Below are positions 8,558 to 60,993 of a stretch of DNA of 64,000 nucleotides, in pieces. The stretch comes from Escherichia coli 042. Lineage in GTDB: Bacteria > Pseudomonadota > Gammaproteobacteria > Enterobacterales > Enterobacteriaceae. The stretch lies in NCBI RefSeq assembly GCF_000027125.1, contig NC_017626.1. One strand, written 5' to 3'. Both the position numbers and the translations under genes were made by a program. The notes beneath the pieces are model-generated. The model saw nothing but the letters and a program-made list of their open reading frames with translations, was not told where the DNA came from and did not search any database. Every line of letters starts with the position of its first letter. Within the stretch, counting starts at the first letter, position 1.

Positions 8558-10516
8558 ATGTCCTTAAAAGGTCTGCGCTTTACGCTGGAGATTGACGGCC
8601 AGGAGCCGGACACCTTTGCAGTGGTGCATTTCAGGTTAATCCAGAACCAGTCTTATCCGTTTGTGATGAGTGTGGATGTTGCCAGCGACTCTTTTATGCA
8701 GACGGCGGAGATGCTGCTGGAGAAGAAGGCGACGCTGACCATCTGGCAGGGCGTCATCCCGCTGCGTTATGTCACCGGCGTGGTGGCGGGTTTTGGCATG
8801 CAGGAGAACAATGGCTGGCAGATGCGTTATCACCTGCGTATTGAGCCGCCGTTATGGCGGTGCGGGCTGCGGCAGAACTTCCGTATCTTCCAGCAGCAGG
8901 ATATCCGGACGATATCGGCCACGTTACTGAACGAGAACGGCGTCACGGAGTGGACACCGCTGTTTTATGAGGACCATCCGGCGCGGGAGTTCTGTGTCCA
9001 GTACGGGGAAAGCGACCTGGCGTTTCTGGCGCGGTTGTGGGCGGAGGAGGGAATTTTCTTCTTTGAGCGGTTTGCGGCGGACAGTCCGGAGCAGAAGCTG
9101 ACGCTGTGCGACGATGTGGCGGGGCTGTCACAGGCGGGAGAGCTTCCGTTTAACCCGGACACATCGGCAGGAGCGGAGACAGAGTGTGTCAGTATGTTCC
9201 GTTATGAGGCGTATGTCCGCCCGTCGTCGGTGCAGAGCCAGGATTACACGTTTAAGGTGCCGGACTGGCCGGGGATGTATGAGCAGCAGGGTGAGAACCT
9301 GAACGGACAGCTGGAGCAGTATGAGATATTTGATTATCCGGGAAGGTTCAAGGATGAACAGCACGGCAAGGATTTCACGCTGTACCAGATGGAGAGCCTG
9401 CGCAGTGATGCGGAAAAGGCCACAGGGCAGAGTAATTCACCGAAGCTGTGGCCGGGAACGCGGTTTACGCTGACGGGGCATCCGCAGAAGATGCTGAACC
9501 GTGAATGGCAGGTGGTACAGAGTATTCTGTCAGGGGACCAGCCGCAGGCGCTGCACGGCAGCCAGGGGAGAGGAACCACGCTGGGAAATCAGTTAGAGGT
9601 GATACCGGCGGACCGGACGTGGCGTCCACGGCTGCAAAGCAAACCGAAGGTGGACGGGCCACAGAGCGCCATTGTCACCGGTCCTGCGGGAGAGGAAATC
9701 TTCTGCGACGAACACGGACGTGTGCGAGTGCAGTTTCACTGGGACAGGTATAACCCGGCAACGGAGGCGAGTTCATGCTGGGTGAGGGTGTCGCAGGCGT
9801 GGGCGGGGCCGGGATTTGGTAACCTGGCGATACCGCGCATCGGCCAGGAAGTGATTGTAGACTTCCTGAACGGCGACCCGGACCAGCCGATAATCATGGG
9901 GCGGACGTACCATGAGGACAACCGTTCGCCGGGGAGTCTGCCGGGGACGAAGACGCAGATGACGATACGGTCGAAGACCTATAAAGGAAGCGGCTTTAAT
10001 GAACTGCGGTTCGAGGACGCGACGGACAAGGAAGAAATTTACCTGCACGCACAGAAAAATATGCAAGTCGTTGTGCTGAACAGCAAGGATAAGCGGGTCA
10101 ACTATGACCGGACGGTCAGCATCGGGCATGATGAATCCCTGGTGGTGGCAAATGACCGGAAAGTGACGGTTGAAGGTAAACAGGACCATAAAACCACCAA
10201 AGACCATGTCAGCCTGACAGAGGGCAATCAGGGGCTGGAGGTGAAAGGCGATCTGGCACAGAAAATAAGCGGCGCGCTGGGTATCAGCGTACAGGGCGAT
10301 ATTGTTTTACAGAGCGACAGCAAAATCAGTCTGCGGGTGGGCGGTTCATTTGTGGTGATCCATTCCGGCGGCGTGGATATTAAGGGCGCGAAAATCAATC
10401 TTAACGGCGGAGGCAGTCCGGGAGACGTGATCCTGCCGATGCGCCCGGTGATCCTGAAAGCCGCAGCCGGAAGCGGGACAATGTTTGTGGCGCACTGCCC
10501 GAAGGAGGATAAGTGA
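8558..10516 (+). CDS. vgrG: T6SS spike protein VgrG (core gp27/gp5-like, no long C-terminal extension)
   Basis: 652-aa ORF with VgrG character including the C-terminal repetitive beta-helix region (VVLNSKDKRVNYDRTVSIGHDESLVVANDRKVTVEG...). Confidence 0.9.
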   Translation: MSLKGLRFTLEIDGQEPDTFAVVHFRLIQNQSYPFVMSVDVASDSFMQTAEMLLEKKATLTIWQGVIPLRYVTGVVAGFGMQENNGWQMRYHLRIEPPLWRCGLRQNFRIFQQQDIRTISATLLNENGVTEWTPLFYEDHPAREFCVQYGESDLAFLARLWAEEGIFFFERFAADSPEQKLTLCDDVAGLSQAGELPFNPDTSAGAETECVSMFRYEAYVRPSSVQSQDYTFKVPDWPGMYEQQGENLNGQLEQYEIFDYPGRFKDEQHGKDFTLYQMESLRSDAEKATGQSNSPKLWPGTRFTLTGHPQKMLNREWQVVQSILSGDQPQALHGSQGRGTTLGNQLEVIPADRTWRPRLQSKPKVDGPQSAIVTGPAGEEIFCDEHGRVRVQFHWDRYNPATEASSCWVRVSQAWAGPGFGNLAIPRIGQEVIVDFLNGDPDQPIIMGRTYHEDNRSPGSLPGTKTQMTIRSKTYKGSGFNELRFEDATDKEEIYLHAQKNMQVVVLNSKDKRVNYDRTVSIGHDESLVVANDRKVTVEGKQDHKTTKDHVSLTEGNQGLEVKGDLAQKISGALGISVQGDIVLQSDSKISLRVGGSFVVIHSGGVDIKGAKINLNGGGSPGDVILPMRPVILKAAAGSGTMFVAHCPKEDK

Positions 10517-15262: not shown

Positions 15263-17153
15263 GTGTGCCGCAGGAACACAAGATAGCTGCATAAGGATAC
15301 GCAGTTAGCTTTTGTATAAGCTCATAAAGAGATGGTGGAAGGCCCACCGGGATCGGCTGTCGGAAGCAGATTCCAAACCACTTCATGCTGCTGTGGTAAA
15401 GAGCCATGGTAGTGAGCGATGAAGTAAAGCGTGAGTGAAAACTCAGCAGGTAAGATACTCATGAGACGAGTGAACCCGAACCCATGTTGACGCGTCGTAA
15501 ACCAGAGACTGACATCAAAACCGAAGGGGCGTCCAGCCTTCGGGATAAGTCTGCGAGTGAATTCCGAATGCTGCGCAGACGGTGTCCGGCGTAAAGTGGG
15601 CGTGACGGAGTATCAGGCTCTTCCTGGGAACTGCGGGAACCTGTCGTTGTGATGATAAGGGAGAAATGCAAGTCACTGAATTGGCGAGCATGAAAGTACC
15701 GATGCACAGCACAGGGACGGAGCCGTTCGTAGTAGTGATGAAGCTTCTGTAATGGAGGTGGAGCGAAGGGGCGGCATCAGACAGTCTTTGGACAGTGTTC
15801 AACTGAACATGTTCAGGAGGAGACAATGACAAAGACAAAAGCGTTTAACATTGATAAGTCACTGGTGGTCAGCGCGTACAGGCGAGTGAAGACCAGTGCA
15901 GGCGCGGCGGGAATTGATAAGCAATCGCTGGCGGACTTTGATAAACGGTTAGTTGATAATCTGTACAAAATCTGGAACCGACTTTCTTCAGGAAGTTATT
16001 TCCCACCGGCAGTGAAAGCGGTGGCAATTCCGAAGAAATTGGGTGGAGAGAGAATTCTGGGTATCCCGACAGTCAGCGATCGTATCGCGCAGACGGTGGT
16101 AAAACTGGCCTTTGAGCCACAGGTTGAGCCACATTTTCTGGCAGACTCTTACGGCTACAGACCGAATAAATCGGCACTGGATGCTATAGGGGTAACGCGT
16201 AAGCGTTGCTGGTATTACGACTGGGTACTGGAATTTGACATCAAAGGGCTGTTCGATAACATCCCGCACGAACTGATAATGAAAGCCGTGGACAAACACA
16301 ATCCGGCCCGGTGGGTAAAATTGTATATACAGCGGTGGCTGACAGCGCCGATGGTGATGTCAGACGGAGAAGTCAGAGCACGAACAATGGGAACGCCGCA
16401 GGGAGGTGTCATAAGTCCGTTGCTGGCAAACCTGTTCATGCATTATGTGTTTGATAAATGGCTGGCAAAATATTATCCGAAAGTGCCGTGGTATCGATAT
16501 GCTGATGATGGCATTTTGCATTGTCACAGCGAAGCAGAAGCGACTGAAATGCGAGAAGTATTACGCAAAAGATTTAGCGAATGCGGACTGGAAATGCATC
16601 CGGAGAAAACGCGAGTTATCTACTGCAAAGATGGAAGCCGGAAGGGTGATTATGAACATACCATGTTCGACTTTCTGGGGTACACATTCAGGCGACGCGT
16701 AGTAAAGAACGTTAAGCGAAACAGTCTGTTTGTAAGTTTTACCCCCGCAGCGAGCAAATCAGCGCTAAAGGCAATGCGTCGGGAAATCAAAGCGACAGGG
16801 ATAAGGAAAAGAGTGGATTTAAGCATTGAGCAGATAGCGAAATGGATAAATCCAAAACTGAATGGCTGGATAAATTATTACGGGCGATATACCTGTTCGG
16901 AATTATACAGCGTGTTCAGATATATCAATAAAGCACTGGTGAGGTGGGGGCGTAAGAAATATAAAATGCTCAGCCGATACAAGACAAGAGCCTCAAAATT
17001 TCTGGAAGAAATGGCGAAGCGAAGTCCACAGTTGTTTGCCCACTGGCGTCTGAAGATGAGAGGCGGACTTGTTTGATGGGAGCGGTATGAGCCGAGAGGT
17101 TCACGTACCGTTCTGCGAGAGGCTGCGGGGGAGGTTCCTGCGGCCTACTCACC
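15263..17153 (+). mobile_element. Group II intron, same orientation as the host transposase gene
   Basis: Exactly fills the gap between the copy-A junction CTGGACG|TGGTAATG and the uninterrupted copy B; starts GTGTG; encodes an RT/maturase; a domain V-like hairpin (GAGCCGAGAGGTTCACGTACCGTTC) lies near the 3' end. Confidence 0.8.
15826..17076 (+). CDS. Group II intron-encoded reverse transcriptase/maturase
   Basis: 416-aa ORF with RT motifs ([10 protein letters not shown], the YADD box in [12 protein letters not shown]) and a C-terminal maturase-like region. Confidence 0.9.
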
Positions 17154-24835: not shown

Positions 24836-24841
24836 GTCTGG

Positions 24842-24980
<139 letters not shown>

Positions 24981-25040
24981 AAAATACTTAAATCAATCTT
25001 CGCCGGGGGCCATGCGCTCCCGCTGTTGTGGAGGTTACCC

Positions 25041-26810: not shown

Positions 26811-27569
26811 ATGTCCTTCATGTCTTCGTTCTTTCACGGCAGATTTCTGCATCCAGGCGTGTTTTCGTTATGCGTTTTGCTCCCTTTACTCGCCAGCGCC
26901 ACCACATCACATATCTCTTTCAGCTACGCCGCCCGCCAGCGGATGCAAAACCGTGCGCGTTTATTAAAACAGTACCAAACCCATCTGAAAAAACAGGCCA
27001 GCTATATTGTGGAAGGCAATGCCGAAAGCAGAAAGGCGCTGCGCCAGCACAACCGCGAACAGATAAAACAGCATCCAGAATGGTTTCCTGCGCCGCTCAA
27101 GGCGAGTGACAGACGCTGGCAGGCGCTGGCGGAGAACAACCATTTCTTAAGCAGCGACCATCTGCACAACATCACCGAAGTGGCGATTCACCGCCTGGAG
27201 CAGCAGCTTGGTAAGCCTTACGTCTGGGGCGGCACGCGGCCCGATCAAGGCTTCGACTGTAGCGGGTTGGTTTTTTATGCCTACAACAAGATCCTCGAGG
27301 CGAAGCTCCCGCGCACGGCCAATGAGATGTATCACTACCATCGGGCAACGATTGTGGCGAATAACGACCTGCGCCGGGGAGATTTGCTGTTTTTCCATAT
27401 TCACAGCCGTGAGATTGCCGATCATATGGGCGTGTATCTGGGAGACGGTCAGTTTATCGAGTCGCCGCGCACCGGGGAAACCATTCGGGTAAGTCGGTTA
27501 GCTGAACCTTTCTGGCAGGATCATTTTTTAGGCGCGCGCAGGATTTTGACGGAAGAGACGATTTTGTAG
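26811..27569 (+). CDS. yafL: NlpC/P60-family peptidoglycan peptidase lipoprotein YafL
   Basis: 252-aa ORF with the NlpC/P60 catalytic Cys context (GFDCSGLVFYAY) and His (HMGVYLGDGQFIESP). Confidence 0.85.
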   Translation: MSFMSSFFHGRFLHPGVFSLCVLLPLLASATTSHISFSYAARQRMQNRARLLKQYQTHLKKQASYIVEGNAESRKALRQHNREQIKQHPEWFPAPLKASDRRWQALAENNHFLSSDHLHNITEVAIHRLEQQLGKPYVWGGTRPDQGFDCSGLVFYAYNKILEAKLPRTANEMYHYHRATIVANNDLRRGDLLFFHIHSREIADHMGVYLGDGQFIESPRTGETIRVSRLAEPFWQDHFLGARRILTEETIL

Positions 27570-27655
27570 GACGGATAAGGCGTTCACGCCGCATCCGGCA
27601 ATAGTGCACCGATGCCTGATGCGACGCTGCCGCGTCTTATCATGCCTACGAGTCT
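27568..27655. repeat. REP elements
   Basis: GGATAAGGCGTTCACGCCGCATCCGGCA ... TGCCTGATGCGACGCTGCCGCGTCTTATCATGCCTAC. Confidence 0.8.
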
Positions 27656-27745
27656 GCGAATTTTTTGCGAGCTGCTTTCCCGATATAACACAACTTCATT
27701 GTCGACTTTTCCTTTTCTTCTTATCGTTGAGAAAAAGGAGTCGCC

Positions 27746-28243
27746 ATGTCTGAATATCGTCGTTATTACATCAAGGGGGGAACATGGTTTTTCACGGTAC
27801 ATTTACGGAATCGTCGAAGCCAACTTTTGACCACCCAGTACCAGACACTCCGTAACGCCATTATTAAAGTTAAGCAGGCCAGACCTTTTGAAATTAACGC
27901 CTGGGTAGTTTTGCCAGAGCATATGCACTGTATCTGGACATTACCCGAAAGTGATGATGATTTTTCCTCTCGCTGGCGGGAGATTAAAAAGCAGTTCACC
28001 CATGCTTGCGGATTGAAAAATATCTGGCAACCGCGTTTTTGGGAGCATGCCATTCGCAATACAAAAGATTATCGCCATCATGTTGATTATATTTATATAA
28101 ATCCAGTGAAACATGGCTGGGTAAAGCAGGTGAGTGATTGGCCATTCTCAACGTTCCATCGCGATGTAGCGCGAGGGTTATATCCCATTGATTGGGCGGG
28201 AGACATAACGGATTTTAGTGCCGGGGAGCGTATTATTTTATAA
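27746..28243 (+). CDS. rayT: REP-associated tyrosine transposase RayT (TnpA-REP, YafM)
   Basis: 165-aa ORF with the IS200/IS605-like HxH region (LPEHMHCIW) and catalytic Tyr region; recognised as rayT. Confidence 0.9.
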   Translation: MSEYRRYYIKGGTWFFTVHLRNRRSQLLTTQYQTLRNAIIKVKQARPFEINAWVVLPEHMHCIWTLPESDDDFSSRWREIKKQFTHACGLKNIWQPRFWEHAIRNTKDYRHHVDYIYINPVKHGWVKQVSDWPFSTFHRDVARGLYPIDWAGDITDFSAGERIIL

Positions 28244-28247
28244 TTGT

Positions 28248-28665
28248 GCGCGGATGCCTGATGCGACGCAGGCGCGTCTTATCATGCCTACAAACTTGTG
28301 CCGGATCGGTGGGCCGGATAAGGCGTTCACACCGCATCCGGCAATTGTGCACCGGTGCCTGATGCGACGCTGGCGCGTCTTATCATGCCTACAAACCTGT
28401 GCCGGATCGGTGGGCCGGATAAGGCGTTCACACCGCATCCGGTAATTGTGCACCGGTGCCTGATGCGACGCTGGCGCGTCTTATCATGCCTACAAACCTG
28501 TGCCGGATCGGTGGGCTGGATAAGGCGTTCACACCGCATCCGGCAATTGTGCGCAGATGCCTGATGCGACGCTGACGCGTCTTATCATGCCTACAAACTT
28601 GTGCCGGATCGGTAGGCCGGATAAGGCGTTCACGCCGCATCCGGCAATTGTGCACCGATGCCGGA
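28248..28665. repeat. BIME/REP array (about four ~100-bp units) directly downstream of rayT
   Basis: Unit TGCCTGATGCGACGCTGGCGCGTCTTATCATGCCTACAAACCTGTGCCGGATCGGTGGGCCGGATAAGGCGTTCACACCGCATCCGG repeats with about 100-bp period. Confidence 0.85.
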
Positions 28666-28681
28666 TTCGCCCCAAAGGCCA

Positions 28682-30775
28682 TCAACTCAACGCCCCCATA
28701 ATCTTCAACTCCAGCTCATCCGGCACTTCGTTATACGACAGCACATGCAGACCCGGCGCAAACAACCTTGCATAACGCGCCAGCAAAGGACGCAGCTGCG
28801 GCGGCACCAGCAGCACAGGGGCTTTCCCCGCTGCTTTCATCTGCTCCTTCACCTGCGGCATCGTACTCTGGAACTGGTTGAGCATATTCGGGTCAACCGG
28901 CACGCTGTCGAGCATCACTTTGCCGGCCTGTTGCGCCTGATTCACCACATTGGTCAGCAGATTTTCCAGCTCATTATTCAGCGTATACACCGTCAGCTCC
29001 TGTTTGCGAACGAACGGATGGGTAATGCTGCGCCGCAGCGCCAGGCGCACATCGGCCGCCAGCAGAATATGATCTTTGGTCAATGTGCTACTGGCGACCA
29101 GCACAGTGGCGATGGTGACGATATCGCGCAGGGAAACGCCTTCGGTCAGTAATGCACGGTACACTTTCAGCAACTGGCTGTAATTGAGCGCTGCGCTCAA
29201 ATCTTCCGCCAGTCGCGGTGCCATCGACGACAAACGATTATGCAACTGCGTAATATCGTCATAGTTAAATAAATCAGGAATATAGCTGCGCACAATCTTA
29301 TTCACATGGGTGGCAATCACGCTGGCGCTGTCGATCACCTGATACCCCATATTCAGCGCCTTCGCTTTCTGCGCGGGCTGGATCCAGGTCACCGGCATCC
29401 CGTACGCCGGGTCGTTCCCCAGCACGCCGTCAATCTCGCCGTAGGTTTCGCTGGAGGGCAGGGCCATCAGTTTATCCGCCGGAATATCCGCTTCATCAGC
29501 CTTAATGCCATTGATGAAAATGGCGTACTGGCTGGGCTTGAGGCGGAAGTTTTCCCGAATACGGATCTCCGGCAGCAGCACGCCGTTGCCGTCGGAAATC
29601 ACCTGCCGCACGCCGCGAATCCGCTGGGTGAGCGGGTTACCTTGGGCTTTATCGACTAGCGCCACCAGCTTGTAGCCGAGGCTTAAGCTGATGGGCTCGA
29701 TCAGCGGAATGGTTTCCCAACTGACCTGTTGCTCGCTGGTTTCGGTGATGGTTCGGGTCAGCGTTTCGAGGCTTTTCTCCTCCGCCTCCGCCGCCTGCGG
29801 GCGTTTGCTCATCCGCCAGCCGGTAAAGCCAAGCAGGGCGCTGAACAGCAAAAATGGCAGATGCGGCATCCCCGGCACCACCGCCAGCACAAACATGATC
29901 CCGGTGGCGGTGTAGAGCACCGACGGGCTTGCCAGCAGCTGGTGGCGCACGTCATGGGCGATATCGCCGTTGTCGCTGACGCGGGTGACGATAATTGCCG
30001 CTGCGGTGGAGAGCAGCAGGGACGGGATCTGCGCCACCAGCCCGTCGCCGATGGTCATCAGCACATACTGCTGGAAGGCGGCGTCGGCGCTCAGGTTGTA
30101 TTTGAAGATGCCGATACAGACGCCGCCGATCAGGTTGATCGCCAGAATCATCATCCCGGCGATGGCGTCCCCGCGCACAAACTTCGATGCCCCGTCCATC
30201 GCGCCGTAGAAATCGGCCTCGCTGGCAACATCTTTACGCCGGGTTTGCGCCTGCGCCTGGTTGATCAACCCAGCGTTAAGATCGGCGTCAATCGCCATCT
30301 GTTTACCGGGCATCGCGTCTAAGGTAAAGCGGGCAGAAACCTCGGAAATACGCTCGGCCCCTTTGGTGACGACGATAAAGTTGATGATCATCAGGATGAT
30401 AAACACCACAAAGCCGACGACAAAGTTGCCGCCAATCACCACCTGACCAAATGACTCAATTACCTTACCCGCCGCGCCCGCGCCGAGATGCCCGTGCAGC
30501 AACACCACGCGCGTAGAAGCAACGTTGAGCGTCAGGCGCATTAAGGTGGTGATCAGCAAAATGGTCGGGAACAGGCTGAATTCCAGCGGCCTTTTCGCTG
30601 ACACCGCCACCAGCAGTACCATCACCGCCAGCACAATGTTGAAGGTGAACAGAATATCCAGCAGCGCAGGCGGCAGCGGCAAAATAACCATCGCCAGAAT
30701 ACACAGGATCACCAGCGGCACGCCGAGATTGCCGCCGCGCAGTAGCGCGAGGAACGATTTAGTTGTTTTCGCCAT
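28682..30775 (-). CDS. lfhA: Lateral flagellar export apparatus protein FlhA homolog
   Basis: 697-aa full-length FlhA-family ORF. Confidence 0.95.
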   Translation of the reverse strand: MAKTTKSFLALLRGGNLGVPLVILCILAMVILPLPPALLDILFTFNIVLAVMVLLVAVSAKRPLEFSLFPTILLITTLMRLTLNVASTRVVLLHGHLGAGAAGKVIESFGQVVIGGNFVVGFVVFIILMIINFIVVTKGAERISEVSARFTLDAMPGKQMAIDADLNAGLINQAQAQTRRKDVASEADFYGAMDGASKFVRGDAIAGMMILAINLIGGVCIGIFKYNLSADAAFQQYVLMTIGDGLVAQIPSLLLSTAAAIIVTRVSDNGDIAHDVRHQLLASPSVLYTATGIMFVLAVVPGMPHLPFLLFSALLGFTGWRMSKRPQAAEAEEKSLETLTRTITETSEQQVSWETIPLIEPISLSLGYKLVALVDKAQGNPLTQRIRGVRQVISDGNGVLLPEIRIRENFRLKPSQYAIFINGIKADEADIPADKLMALPSSETYGEIDGVLGNDPAYGMPVTWIQPAQKAKALNMGYQVIDSASVIATHVNKIVRSYIPDLFNYDDITQLHNRLSSMAPRLAEDLSAALNYSQLLKVYRALLTEGVSLRDIVTIATVLVASSTLTKDHILLAADVRLALRRSITHPFVRKQELTVYTLNNELENLLTNVVNQAQQAGKVMLDSVPVDPNMLNQFQSTMPQVKEQMKAAGKAPVLLVPPQLRPLLARYARLFAPGLHVLSYNEVPDELELKIMGALS

Positions 30776-35059: not shown

Positions 35060-35168
<109 letters not shown>

Positions 35169-52048: not shown

Positions 52049-52172
52049 CGTGCGGTCTGATGCCCTCACCCCGGCCCTCTCCCACAGGGAGAGGGGGAAA
52101 AGCGGTGCACGATGTAACAACGCGCACAGGTCAGTCCCCTCTCCCTTGAGGGAGAGGGTTAGGGTGAGGGGG
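52049..52172. repeat. GC-rich composite palindromic repeat, copy 2
   Basis: CTGATGCCCTCACCCCGGCCCTCTCCCACAGGGAGAGGG ... CCCCTCTCCCTTGAGGGAGAGGGTTAGGGTGAGGGG. Confidence 0.75.
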
Positions 52173-54335: not shown

Positions 54336-54420
54336 TGCCTGATGCGACGCTGGCGCGTCTTATCAGGCCTACGAGTCGCCCGTATGTAGGCCGGATAAGG
54401 CGTTCACGCCGCATCCGGCA
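54336..54420. repeat. REP elements between lfgJ and lfgK
   Basis: TGCCTGATGCGACGCTGGCGCGTCTTATCAGGCCTAC ... GTAGGCCGGATAAGGCGTTCACGCCGCATCCGGCA. Confidence 0.8.
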
Positions 54421-57882: not shown

Positions 57883-58227
57883 ATGATGTGGGACGTCGAG
57901 ACAACGGAGACTTTCGACAACTGGTTTGATGCCCAGACTGTTGCGCTGAAAGAAGATTTACTTGCTGCAATGCTGATTCTTGCTGAGTATGGCCCACAGT
58001 TGGGCAGACCCTTTGCGGATACGGTTAATGATTCACAGTTTTCAAATATGAAAGAATTACGCGTCCAACATCAGGGAAACCCGGTACGTGCTTTTTTTGC
58101 TTTCGATCCTGCGCGCCGTGGCATTGTATTATGTGCGGGTGATAAAACGGGGTTAAATGAGAAAAAGTTTTATCGCGATATGATCAAGCTCGCTGATTCT
58201 GAATACCGTAAGCATCTGAAAAAGTAA
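57883..58227 (+). CDS. RelE/ParE-superfamily toxin (HigB-like, toxin-first arrangement)
   Basis: 114-aa ORF (MMWDVETTETFDNWFD...GPQLGRPFADT...KELRVQHQGNPVRAFFAFDPARRGIVLCAGDKTG) matching the addiction-module killer protein family. Confidence 0.7.
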   Translation: MMWDVETTETFDNWFDAQTVALKEDLLAAMLILAEYGPQLGRPFADTVNDSQFSNMKELRVQHQGNPVRAFFAFDPARRGIVLCAGDKTGLNEKKFYRDMIKLADSEYRKHLKK

Positions 58228-58236
58228 GGAACGATA

Positions 58237-58536
58237 ATGGCTACTCTAAAAGAACTGATGGCAAAGCAAAGCCCTGAAAGCCAGGCGCGTATTGCGGCAA
58301 AAGTTGAGGAAATGCGCCAGACCATCGCCTTGCATCAGCTGAGAGAAGAACTCAATATTTCGCAAACGGAAATGGCGGCAGCGATGGGCATTAAGCAACC
58401 GACTCTTGCAAAAATGGAGCAGGCAGATAACGATCCTCGGTTGTCTACGCTAAAACGCTATGTTGCGGCTTTAGGTGGGGAATTGAGTATCGACGTTAAA
58501 CTGCCGAATGGTAAGAGAATTGCATTTCAGATTTAA
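58237..58536 (+). CDS. HTH (XRE-type) antitoxin, HigA-like
   Basis: 99-aa ORF 10 nt after the toxin gene; HTH region ELNISQTEMAAAMGIKQPTLAKME. Confidence 0.7.
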   Translation: MATLKELMAKQSPESQARIAAKVEEMRQTIALHQLREELNISQTEMAAAMGIKQPTLAKMEQADNDPRLSTLKRYVAALGGELSIDVKLPNGKRIAFQI

Positions 58537-60836: not shown

Positions 60837-60880
60837 TGGCGGACTTGCCGATGCGGCGTAAACGCCTTATCCGGCCACGA

Positions 60881-60906
60881 ACAACACCGCCTGCGGGCGG
60901 TGTTGT
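60881..60906 (+). terminator. Rho-independent terminator after lafA, adjacent to a single REP unit
   Basis: Stem ACAACACCGCC / GGCGGTGTTGT with loop TGCG followed by GCTTTC. Confidence 0.55.
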
Positions 60907-60993
60907 GCTTTCAGCGGCAGGCTTTTTTCCGCCAGAACGGAAACGTCATTTCCGCCTGTTTTTCAATCTATTGATTATTCACATAAAAAATAT

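Follow-up and report, generated by a model that had tools for sequence, protein, structure and literature searches.

The window, i.e., the whole 64,000-nucleotide stretch of Escherichia coli 042 analysed here, carries the Flag-2 flagellar gene cluster and, adjacent to it, the locus of a REP-associated transposase. Positions 27566-28666 represent the canonical E. coli REPtron, which occupies its usual fixed place on the chromosome, between yafL and lfhA (fhiA), the first Flag-2 gene. It comprises rayT (tnpA-REP, yafM), preceded on the 5' side by one BIME and followed on the 3' side by a tandem BIME-2 array (Table 1). The REPtron has already been described (Ton-Hoang et al. 2012), PGAP labels the gene rayT in identical loci, and the finding is known in kind. 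The first-pass annotation placed the element at 27746-28665, which covers rayT and the right-hand array but leaves out the left BIME. Flag-2 is regarded as acquired on the basis of its G+C deviation (PMC6993521), and in the window its G+C content is 55.5% versus 52.3% in the flank. The cluster is non-essential and often deleted.

Table 1. REP-related features and second palindromic repeats in the window (Y, Z2: REP types; signs in brackets, strand).
Feature	Position	Strand	Composition
lpcA(gmhA)/yafJ spacer	24843..24975		Y(+) 24843-24877, Z2(-) 24890-24926, degenerate Y(+) 24944-24975
Left (5') BIME	27566..27649	+	Y REP 27566-27600, 12-nt linker, inverted Z2 27613-27649
rayT	27746..28243	+	ORF, 165 aa
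Right (3') BIME-2 array	28242..28666	+	4.2 tandem 101-bp units, each inverted Z2 + Y
Array inverted Z2 starts	28255, 28356, 28457, 28558		37 nt each
Array Y starts	28309, 28410, 28511, 28612		35 nt each
lfiM/lafK BIME, divergent spacer	35079..35167		Y(-) 35079-35113, Z2(+) 35131-35167, head-to-head
Second palindromic repeat, copy 1	44822..44936		glycosyltransferase/hypothetical-gene spacer
lfgF/lfgG spacer	51080..51214		Y(+) 51080-51114, Z2(-) 51127-51162, Y(+) 51180-51214
Second palindromic repeat, copy 2	52058..52172		lfgG/lfgH spacer
lfgJ/lfgK spacer	54336..54420		Z2(-) 54336-54372, Y(+) 54386-54420
lafA/lafB spacer	~60848-60880		Y(-), single, decayed; between lafA stop and terminator hairpin 60883-60912

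The predicted product of rayT is RayT/TnpA-REP, a Y1 HUH single-strand DNA endonuclease/transposase. It is identical to the K-12 protein at 157 of 165 residues (95%), and the genes differ at 36 of 498 nucleotide positions. We consider the identity of the protein settled because it is matched by the NCBIfam equivalog NF047646 “REP-associated tyrosine transposase” (176.4 bits, cut-off 80) and by the PDB entry 4ER8 “TnpArep” (E=4.8e-113, residues 1-164), while the Pfam search gave no family at 1e-3. The active site (H59-M60-H61 and Y115) and the metal ligands (N119, H123, and E161) are intact, and the DNA-contact residues of 4ER8 are kept (R46, R78, K81, K82, Q83, T85, H86, K91, and R97); the roles of the catalytic and contact residues were taken from PMC3479197. 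Published biochemical work shows that RayT recognises REP as a folded single-stranded hairpin, with the 5' GTAG and the AA/GC bulge as contacts; cleavage takes place at CT dinucleotides close by, and the enzyme is able to join strands again. The 95% identity and the conserved contacts suggest that the RayT of the window would likewise bind single-stranded REPs and cleave at CT.

The left BIME has the same arrangement as in K-12, and the GTAG of its Y REP, lying on the plus strand, includes the stop codon of yafL (TAG, 27567-27569). The right-hand array was recovered by Tandem Repeats Finder with a period of 101, 94% matches and a score of 745, in agreement with the earlier statement that the RayT gene is followed by about four REP doublets of about 100 bp. 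Its Y units 1-3 have GTGG for GTAG plus an upper-stem G>A substitution, and unit 4 is canonical. Since these two private mutations are missing from unit 4 and from K-12, the array appears to have been amplified locally. The E. coli enzyme depends on GTAG in vitro, and as GTGG is present in three of the four Y units downstream of rayT, a large part of the array may serve RayT poorly as a substrate.

In the published E. coli layout a single BIME (y REP + z2 iREP) lies to the left of rayT and the number of BIMEs to its right varies (PMC3333891); left and right BIMEs number 1 + 4 in the window, 1 + 2 in K-12, and 1 + ~1.5 in KY177. The K-12 REPtron (Nunvar 2010, Ton-Hoang 2012, Messing 2012, Corneloup 2021) has the same gene, site, left BIME and right BIME-2 unit type, the CATGCCTAC variant of Z2 included, and differs in the number of right-hand units and in lacking their mutations; besides, the window retains an intact lfhA and the whole Flag-2 cluster, whereas K-12 has an lfhA/lafU deletion remnant. 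In strain A26 the right-hand spacer of rayT holds a different REP set, and in E2865 hicAB stands in place of the rayT unit. The yafL-rayT-array stretch is present in 3,485 of 5,426 complete genomes, a fraction that agrees with the published count of 74/110.

In addition to the REPtron, REP units were located with blastn-short in one spacer outside Flag-2 (lpcA/yafJ) and in four spacers within the cluster. All four Flag-2 sites of the first-pass annotation (about 35060, 51079, 54336, and 60845) proved to be REPs of the Y and Z2 types; its list was incomplete, missing the BIME upstream of rayT, the lpcA/yafJ triplet, and a second palindromic repeat considered below. A consensus scan of the window at no more than 3 mismatches gave 8 Z2 and 10 Y matches, with 0.00 expected from 100 shuffles. 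All 21 REP units are intergenic, and 17 of them possess GTAG, with GTGG found in the three array units and in the lafA unit. As folded DNA they show the GTAG, a 7-bp stem, a 2x2 AA/GC bulge, a 4-5-bp stem, and a 3-4-nt loop, the fold z-scores of intact units being -4.4 for Y, -3.3 for Z2, and -5.9 for the 51-kb Z2. The lafA unit, which also has a 1-nt stem deletion, reaches only -1.1, and the conserved lafA terminator hairpin lies downstream of it. Y units alternate with Z2 units of opposite orientation and occur in tandem copies; Y is on the plus strand at 5 of the 7 loci, a bias that is not significant.

The Flag-2 units are of the same Y and Z2 types as at the core E. coli loci and have linkers of the BIME-2 type. 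No donor loci could be identified by linker comparison, BIME-2 linkers being all alike. REP-containing queries matched a median of at least 28-39 places per genome. In the lfgF/lfgG spacer the REPs begin 9 nt past the lfgF stop and the Z2 loop is 1 nt shorter; REPs follow the stops of lfgF, lfgJ, and lafA at 9-16 nt. The Z2 of the lfiM/lafK BIME equals the left Z2 of the REPtron over 36 nt, including the CATGCCTAC stem variant, which occurs within the window only at 24.9, 27.6, 28.3-28.6, and 35.1 kb, and the 51-kb and 54-kb Z2 units have the CAGGCCTAC form.

Six Y+iZ2 doublets of the window fit the naRNA4/REP325 model of nucleoid-associated RNA (RF02564) at 72.1-80.2 bits against a gathering threshold of 59.5: one in the left BIME (27569-27646, 73.1 bits), three in the right array, one in lpcA/yafJ (80.2 bits), and one in lfgF/lfgG (78.4 bits). 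These matches say nothing of transcription or HU binding because the Rfam model amounts to that of a BIME doublet.

Occupancy of these spacers is polymorphic in E. coli, with solo-Y versus Y-iZ2-Y, empty versus filled, one to six BIME copies, and permuted order. The window allele of lfiM/lafK was found in 64 of about 1,268 Flag-2-positive genomes, and the majority E. coli allele is permuted, with Z2(+) preceding Y(-). The 178-bp allele of lfgF/lfgG was found in 141 of these genomes, while most Escherichia have a solo Y in a 78-bp spacer. Among strains, the lfgD/lfgE spacer is 23, 143, or 271 bp; lfgJ/lfgK ranges in Escherichia from 85 to 794 bp, the latter in Escherichia sp. MOD1-EC7003 with about 6 BIMEs, and lacks a BIME in E. 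whittamii; lafA/lafB extends from 204 to 527 bp, the latter with three Z2+Y BIMEs in A26. Strain 135, which is Flag-2-deleted and was compared only at the REPtron and in lpcA/yafJ, retains just the last Y of the latter spacer, which is 104 bp long. The status of rayT also varies in E. coli, including rayT+, precise deletion, and hicAB replacement. Differences of +100 bp (Y+iZ2) occur at lfgF/lfgG and lpcA/yafJ, while elsewhere the changes are whole-BIME copy-number steps; at lfgD/lfgE and lfgG/lfgH the whole spacer is replaced, with no clean insertion.

Outside Escherichia, we compared at least 15 Flag-2 loci from Citrobacter, Enterobacter, Phytobacter, Leminorella, and Rahnella, and the E. 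coli REP consensus had no match in their orthologous spacers. The lfgF/lfgG spacer is 12-30 bp in these genera versus 78 or 178 bp in Escherichia, and lfgJ/lfgK is about 100 bp versus 175-794 bp. The solo Y in lfgF/lfgG and the Y after lafA are present in all Escherichia species sampled (E. coli, E. whittamii, and two other species). The Citrobacter cluster possesses one REP-like hairpin in lfgG/lfgH, common with E. coli, plus rare extra units, and therefore not every Flag-2 hairpin is a gain after arrival. Citrobacter genomes reportedly host the same GTAG-3 REP superfamily (PMC3733652), and a REP-bearing host is therefore not sufficient for colonisation because the Flag-2 spacers of Citrobacter are almost empty.

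We suggest, with a probability of about 0.9, that a canonical REPtron stands here beside Flag-2 REPs which came from the genome-wide Y/Z2 population, entered the cluster in Escherichia, and were later reshuffled. The rayT gene would be a single-copy domesticated Y1 HUH transposase gene with one 5' BIME and a locally amplified 3' BIME-2 array, and its cleavage and rejoining activity represents a proposed route for REP/BIME spread in trans, which is putative in vivo. The Flag-2 REPs would be ordinary members of the genome-wide population; their entry in the Escherichia lineage is indicated by the short REP-free spacers of other genera versus the REPs in Escherichia, after which expansion, loss, permutation or replacement would have followed separately in each lineage. 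This comparison across Flag-2-positive genomes, with REPs in Escherichia, polymorphic in E. coli, and few outside, upholds the earlier proposal that the acquired locus was colonised by the host REP family. RayT may have been the agent placing the Flag-2 copies, and REP number is reported to differ little between rayT+ and rayT- strains (PMC3333891).

Could the REPs have been present in the donor and arrived with the locus? Pseudocitrobacter vendiensis, P. faecalis, and a “Citrobacter” MAG do have Flag-2 with REP/BIME of the E. coli type in the same spacers, and the lfgG/lfgH hairpin is common to Citrobacter and E. coli. However, the former loci are 95-98% identical in nucleotides to E. coli Flag-2 gene ends, i.e., within the E. 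coli diversity, and therefore export from Escherichia or mis-binned contigs are simpler explanations. Distant Flag-2 loci (LfgI 80-94% identical) have no REPs in lfgF/lfgG and lfgJ/lfgK, and the Flag-2 units belong to the same Y/Z2 types as the core loci of the window, so that arrival with the locus is very improbable. A local origin, by short-range hopping or gene conversion from the adjacent REPtron, draws on the lfiM/lafK BIME, in which the Z2 is shared with the REPtron as described, the linkers resemble those of the array, and the window allele is derived and in the minority. The CAGGCCTAC form of the 51-kb and 54-kb units speaks against it, as does E2865, which is devoid of rayT and its BIMEs but keeps REPs in five Flag-2 spacers; moreover, with about 420-580 REPs per E. 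coli genome (PMC3333891), the density of Flag-2 (4 REP loci per 35 kb) exceeds the genome average by no more than a modest margin. We consider such a local origin unlikely.

The hairpins might instead be built-in regulatory elements of Flag-2 (terminators, mRNA stabilisers or translation modulators) that are under selection and merely resemble REPs. REPs reportedly stabilise upstream mRNA and, when near the stop codon, lower expression of the upstream gene, which together with the short distances from the stops of lfgF, lfgJ, and lafA would fit this idea. Nevertheless, the units fit the Y/Z2 consensus with 0-3 mismatches, GTAG and linkers included; their presence, copy number, and order differ between strains; they are missing from orthologous spacers of other genera in which the flagellar genes are intact; and lafA has its own conserved terminator. 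We therefore find this explanation improbable. An artefact of assembly or of chance has practically no probability as the source of the spacer REPs: no support for it was found, zero chance matches are expected, the same alleles recur in 64-141 independent complete genomes, and over three of these spacers strain 118UI matches the window at 100% identity. Under the preferred reading, colonisation from the genome-wide population, the REPs likely act at present as 3' mRNA hairpins at gene or operon boundaries and as binding sites for HU, IHF, and gyrase, and likely give naRNA-type transcripts. All of these effects are known for REPs generally and none is specific to Flag-2, where the units may have a regulatory role.

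A more specific proposal is that the transition from solo-Y to Y-iZ2-Y (+100 bp) occurred independently at two loci and represents RayT-catalysed insertion of a doublet beside a resident REP. On this reading the lfiM/lafK BIME would have been replaced by a copy with the Z2 variant seen at the REPtron. Such insertions would be the first trace, left within a genome, of BIMEs spread by RayT in E. coli, and the Flag-2 locus would allow a direct test of this process. We regard it as rather improbable: the boundaries of these changes are internal to REPs, so unequal or ectopic homologous recombination between REPs would also give the doublet-step pattern, and no convincing target-site duplications or CT-dinucleotide signatures were found at the filled versus empty junctions of lfgD/lfgE and lfgF/lfgG.

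The units of the window show no difference of substance from BIME-2/REP Y and Z2 (GTAG-3 families, Di Nocera 2013), with which they share GTAG, the AA/GC-bulged palindrome, alternation in opposite orientation, short linkers, and strain-variable tandem copy number. A parallel is the REPIN/RAYT system of Pseudomonas (Bertels & Rainey 2011), comprising, as the E. coli system would, a single-copy RAYT and inverted REP doublets whose number varies between related genomes; the doublet-sized (+100 bp) change at two loci of the window resembles REPINs, but the E. coli doublets are heterodimers (Y+Z2) in tandem arrays and their mobility is putative. The Y1 transposases of IS200/IS605 (IS608, ISDra2) have in common with RayT the HUH and single-Tyr chemistry, recognition of sub-terminal imperfect hairpins, and a 5' guide tetranucleotide, whereas RayT is a monomer encoded by a single-copy gene that is not mobilised together with its flanks (PMC3333891, PMC3479197).

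As a textbook feature of E. coli, the REPtron matters little by itself, and REPs are expected in intergenic spacers. The REP content of Flag-2 is of modest use as a residence marker, which indicates a stay in the Escherichia lineage of sufficient length for REPs to populate the cluster, and it flags the Pseudocitrobacter loci as probable exports from Escherichia. The allele series (empty, solo-REP, and multi-BIME) of the Flag-2 and lpcA/yafJ spacers over about 1,270 E. coli genomes represents a convenient dataset on REP/BIME spread and on the need for RayT. Our literature search on Flag-2 and REP found no mention of the occupancy of Flag-2 spacers.

The Flag-2 spacers also hold another host repeat, unrelated to REP: the second palindromic repeat of about 115 nt, with the ends CCCTCACCCC/CCCTCTCCC ... 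GGGAGAGGG/GGGTGAGGGG, for which the name “box C” found no confirmation in the literature. Other strains have a short Z2-like hairpin instead of this repeat in lfgG/lfgH, and in KY177 the same repeat family occupies lfgJ/lfgK, where the window has REPs.

The protein encoded by rayT (tnpA-REP, yafM), a domesticated transposase gene, matches the crystallised K-12 TnpA-REP (PDB 4ER8) at E=4.8e-113 and the NCBIfam equivalog NF047646 at 176 bits (cut-off 80). The gene differs from its K-12 counterpart in 36 of 498 nucleotides (8 amino acids), and the protein is intact: the HUH triad H59-M60-H61, the catalytic Y115 and the metal ligands N119/H123/E161 are retained, as are all DNA-contact residues defined by Messing et al. 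(PMC3479197). Together with its flanking BIMEs (REP doublets such as Y+iZ2, where i stands for inverted), rayT is the E. coli REPtron, which is already known from exactly this locus and is routinely annotated. Ton-Hoang et al. (PMC3333891) placed E. coli tnpA-REP at the unique yafL/fhiA site (fhiA being the K-12 remnant of lfhA), with “invariably a single BIME” (y REP + z2 iREP) at the 5′ side and a variable BIME number at the 3′ side, and the window agrees with this layout point for point. The first-pass annotation had recognised rayT followed by about four tandem ~100-bp REP doublets as the arrangement proposed for REP mobilisation; this part stands, while the unit has to be extended by the left BIME, which was overlooked. 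The left Y unit shares the TAG of its GTAG (27566-27569) with the yafL stop codon, as in K-12, so the REP hairpin begins directly after the reading frame. The yafL-rayT-array stretch occurs in 3,485 of 5,426 complete E. coli genomes (megablast, at least 80% coverage), where the gene is annotated as “REP-associated tyrosine transposase RayT”; in strain E2865 (B1-type) hicAB replaces the whole REPtron, as published.

Repeats and gene blocks of the window, with the positions proposed in the first-pass annotation
Feature	Coordinates	Location or details	First-pass position
Type VI secretion genes, IS/intron debris	1 to ~20 kb
Core genes yafV-ivy-fadE-lpcA-yafJ-dpaA-yafL		between T6SS/IS debris and rayT
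Y-iZ2-Y	24843-24975	lpcA/yafJ (spacer 24836-25040)	overlooked
Left BIME	Y 27566-27600, iZ2 27613-27649	5′ of rayT	overlooked
rayT	27746-28243	165 aa; PDB 4ER8 and NF047646 matches	27746
Right array	28242-28666	3′ of rayT; period 101, 4.2 copies, 94% matches (Tandem Repeats Finder)	28248-28665
Intact Flag-2 (lateral flagella) cluster	lfhA 28682-30775 (-) to past 63 kb
Y(-), Z2(+)	35079-35113, 35131-35167	lfiM/lafK	~35060
Second palindromic repeat, ~115 nt, unrelated to REP	44822-44936, 52058-52172	two Flag-2 spacers	overlooked
Y, iZ2, Y	51080-51214	lfgF/lfgG	51079
iZ2, Y	54336-54420	lfgJ/lfgK	54336
Decayed single Y	60848-60880	lafA/lafB	60845

In each unit of the right array an inverted Z2 REP precedes a Y REP, and the unit number varies: four in the window, two in K-12, about 1.5 in KY177 and a different set in A26. 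Two changes, GTGG in place of GTAG and a G>A substitution in the upper stem, are common to units 1-3 and absent from unit 4 and from K-12; the extra copies have therefore come from a single variant unit that was amplified locally. Since the E. coli enzyme depends on GTAG to bind and cut in vitro, the three GTGG units may be poor RayT substrates. In 118UI, the IS3-family element ISEc31 (L003 3141-4354) lies in the linker between iZ2 and Y, at a place that corresponds to the window near 28393-28410, and one further genome carries an IS1397-family element in this region. Both cases agree with the preference of some IS for BIMEs as targets, known from work on IS1397. Several ORFs of 48-85 aa cross the array on both strands (28218-28685); one is a PGAP “hypothetical protein” in A26, and they are repeat by-products rather than genes.

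All four Flag-2 spacers in which REP units had been noticed do contain them. At up to 3 mismatches the window holds 8 Z2 and 10 Y matches, with none in 100 shuffles. Folded as DNA, the units show the shape expected of a REP: GTAG, a 7-bp stem, an AA/GC bulge, a 4-5-bp stem and a small loop. Intact units reach z-scores of -3.3 to -5.9, the decayed lafA unit only -1.1. Six Y+iZ2 doublets score above gathering with Rfam naRNA4 (RF02564), a model which is in effect the BIME doublet. The Flag-2 REPs are ordinary family members; in the literature searched we found no mention of them.

Searches with the E. coli Y/Z1/Z2 consensus covered the Flag-2 loci of four more E. coli strains and 74 loci of other species that an LfgI scan of genome contigs had found; spacer lengths were measured from anchors. 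REPs occupy these spacers in all Escherichia loci (E. coli, E. whittamii and two further species), whereas the consensus found no match in Citrobacter (10+ species), Enterobacter, Phytobacter, Leminorella, Rahnella and other loci. The lfgF/lfgG spacer measures 12-30 bp outside Escherichia and 78 bp (solo Y) or 178 bp (Y-iZ2-Y) within it; lfgJ/lfgK ~100 bp versus 175-794 bp (85 bp, no REP, in E. whittamii); lfgG/lfgH 50-102 bp versus 70-468 bp. In alignments REPs are clean extra blocks, and the REP after lafA has been inserted 3′ of the stop codon and 5′ of a terminator hairpin that all genera share. A looser hairpin scan found one REP-like hairpin, GCCGGAT(N11-15)ATCCGGC, in lfgG/lfgH of Citrobacter loci (near 9214-9260; L012-L015, L018, L023, L029) and an additional GTAG-tagged unit in two species, giving 1-2 REP-like units per 21 kb versus 7-17 in Escherichia. 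The GTAG-3 REP superfamily is reported from Citrobacter too (Di Nocera et al., PMC3733652), and the contrast is therefore one of degree. The REP units noticed in Flag-2 are real, and the initial interpretation that the host REP family colonised this locus is essentially right. C. youngae ATCC 29220 has a CTAC/GTAG-tagged doublet in lfgG/lfgH.

Three loci, from Pseudocitrobacter vendiensis (L007), P. faecalis (L010) and a “Citrobacter sp.” MAG (L009), share 95-98% nucleotide identity with E. coli Flag-2 at gene ends and 98-99% amino acid identity in LfgI, and carry E. coli-type REPs/BIMEs and the second repeat in the same spacers as E. coli. This suggests that Flag-2 was exported from Escherichia or that the contigs are mis-assigned.

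Within E. coli the REP occupancy of Flag-2 spacers is strikingly polymorphic, and change continues. The lfgD/lfgE spacer holds no REP in the window and in E2865 (23 bp), has one iZ1+Y BIME (143 bp) in 118UI and A26, and two BIMEs (271 bp) in KY177. Most E. coli strains and other Escherichia species have a solo Y in lfgF/lfgG; the 178-bp form of the window occurs in 141 genomes. The same +100-bp doublet step is seen at the unrelated core locus lpcA/yafJ, where strain 135 has a solo Y (104-bp spacer) against Y-iZ2-Y in the window. The head-to-head order iY-Z2 that the window shows in lfiM/lafK occurs in 64 genomes, while in the majority allele Z2 precedes iY at equal spacer length; the Z2 of the window is identical to the left Z2 of the REPtron over 36 nt, the CATGCCTAC variant included. 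A26 has three BIMEs in lafA/lafB, and Escherichia sp. MOD1-EC7003 about six in lfgJ/lfgK. We regard the allele series as a convenient resource, not as a discovery.

In its folded single-stranded form, REP is bound by K-12 RayT via GTAG and the bulge; the enzyme cleaves at CT dinucleotides on both sides, becomes joined to the DNA through a 5′-phosphotyrosine link and is capable of strand transfer (PMC3479197, PMC3333891). Such binding, cleavage and strand transfer, followed by local amplification, would have seeded and reshaped the Flag-2 copies. Comparison of filled and empty Flag-2 alleles gave no junction signature that tells RayT action from homologous recombination between REPs, and REP number differs little between rayT+ and rayT- strains (PMC3333891). 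We consider it unlikely that doublet insertion by RayT left its mark both in the recurrent solo-Y to Y-iZ2-Y step and in the REPtron-type replacement in lfiM/lafK.

A regulatory role of the Flag-2 REPs, as mRNA 3′ hairpins 9-16 nt past the stop codons of lfgF, lfgJ and lafA, is plausible on general grounds. Their polymorphism between strains argues against a required one.

The second palindromic repeat, which resembles the repeat called “box C”, has the ends CCCTCACCCC/CCCTCTCCC ... GGGAGAGGG/GGGTGAGGGG and fold z-scores of -5.7 and -7.4. It occupies only 1-5 places per E. coli genome (megablast), is missing from both window spacers in A26 and E2865, and stands in place of the BIME in lfgJ/lfgK of KY177. 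E. coli strains without it have a short Z2-like hairpin at the Citrobacter hairpin site in lfgG/lfgH.

Along the window, T6SS genes (1-10.5 kb) with IS/intron debris are followed by core genes, rayT and Flag-2. The lfiM-lafK part of Flag-2 was found in 1,268 E. coli genomes, in agreement with the 24% prevalence of De Maayer et al. (PMC6993521), who took its +4.8% G+C deviation as a sign of horizontal origin in Escherichia; our values (55.5% versus 52.3% in adjoining core genes) are consistent with this. Group II intron RNA domains (15334-17153; RF01999, 105 bits; RF00029, 58 bits) interrupt an ISAs1-family transposase gene, and the annotation of the collinear strain 135 includes an ltrA-type reverse transcriptase gene there. 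Within Flag-2, a RelE/ParE toxin and helix-turn-helix antitoxin pair (57883-58536), between a lafW-like gene and a regulator, is present in the window and 118UI and absent from KY177, E2865 and A26, while in KY177 a type II restriction-modification pair separates lfgM from lfgA.
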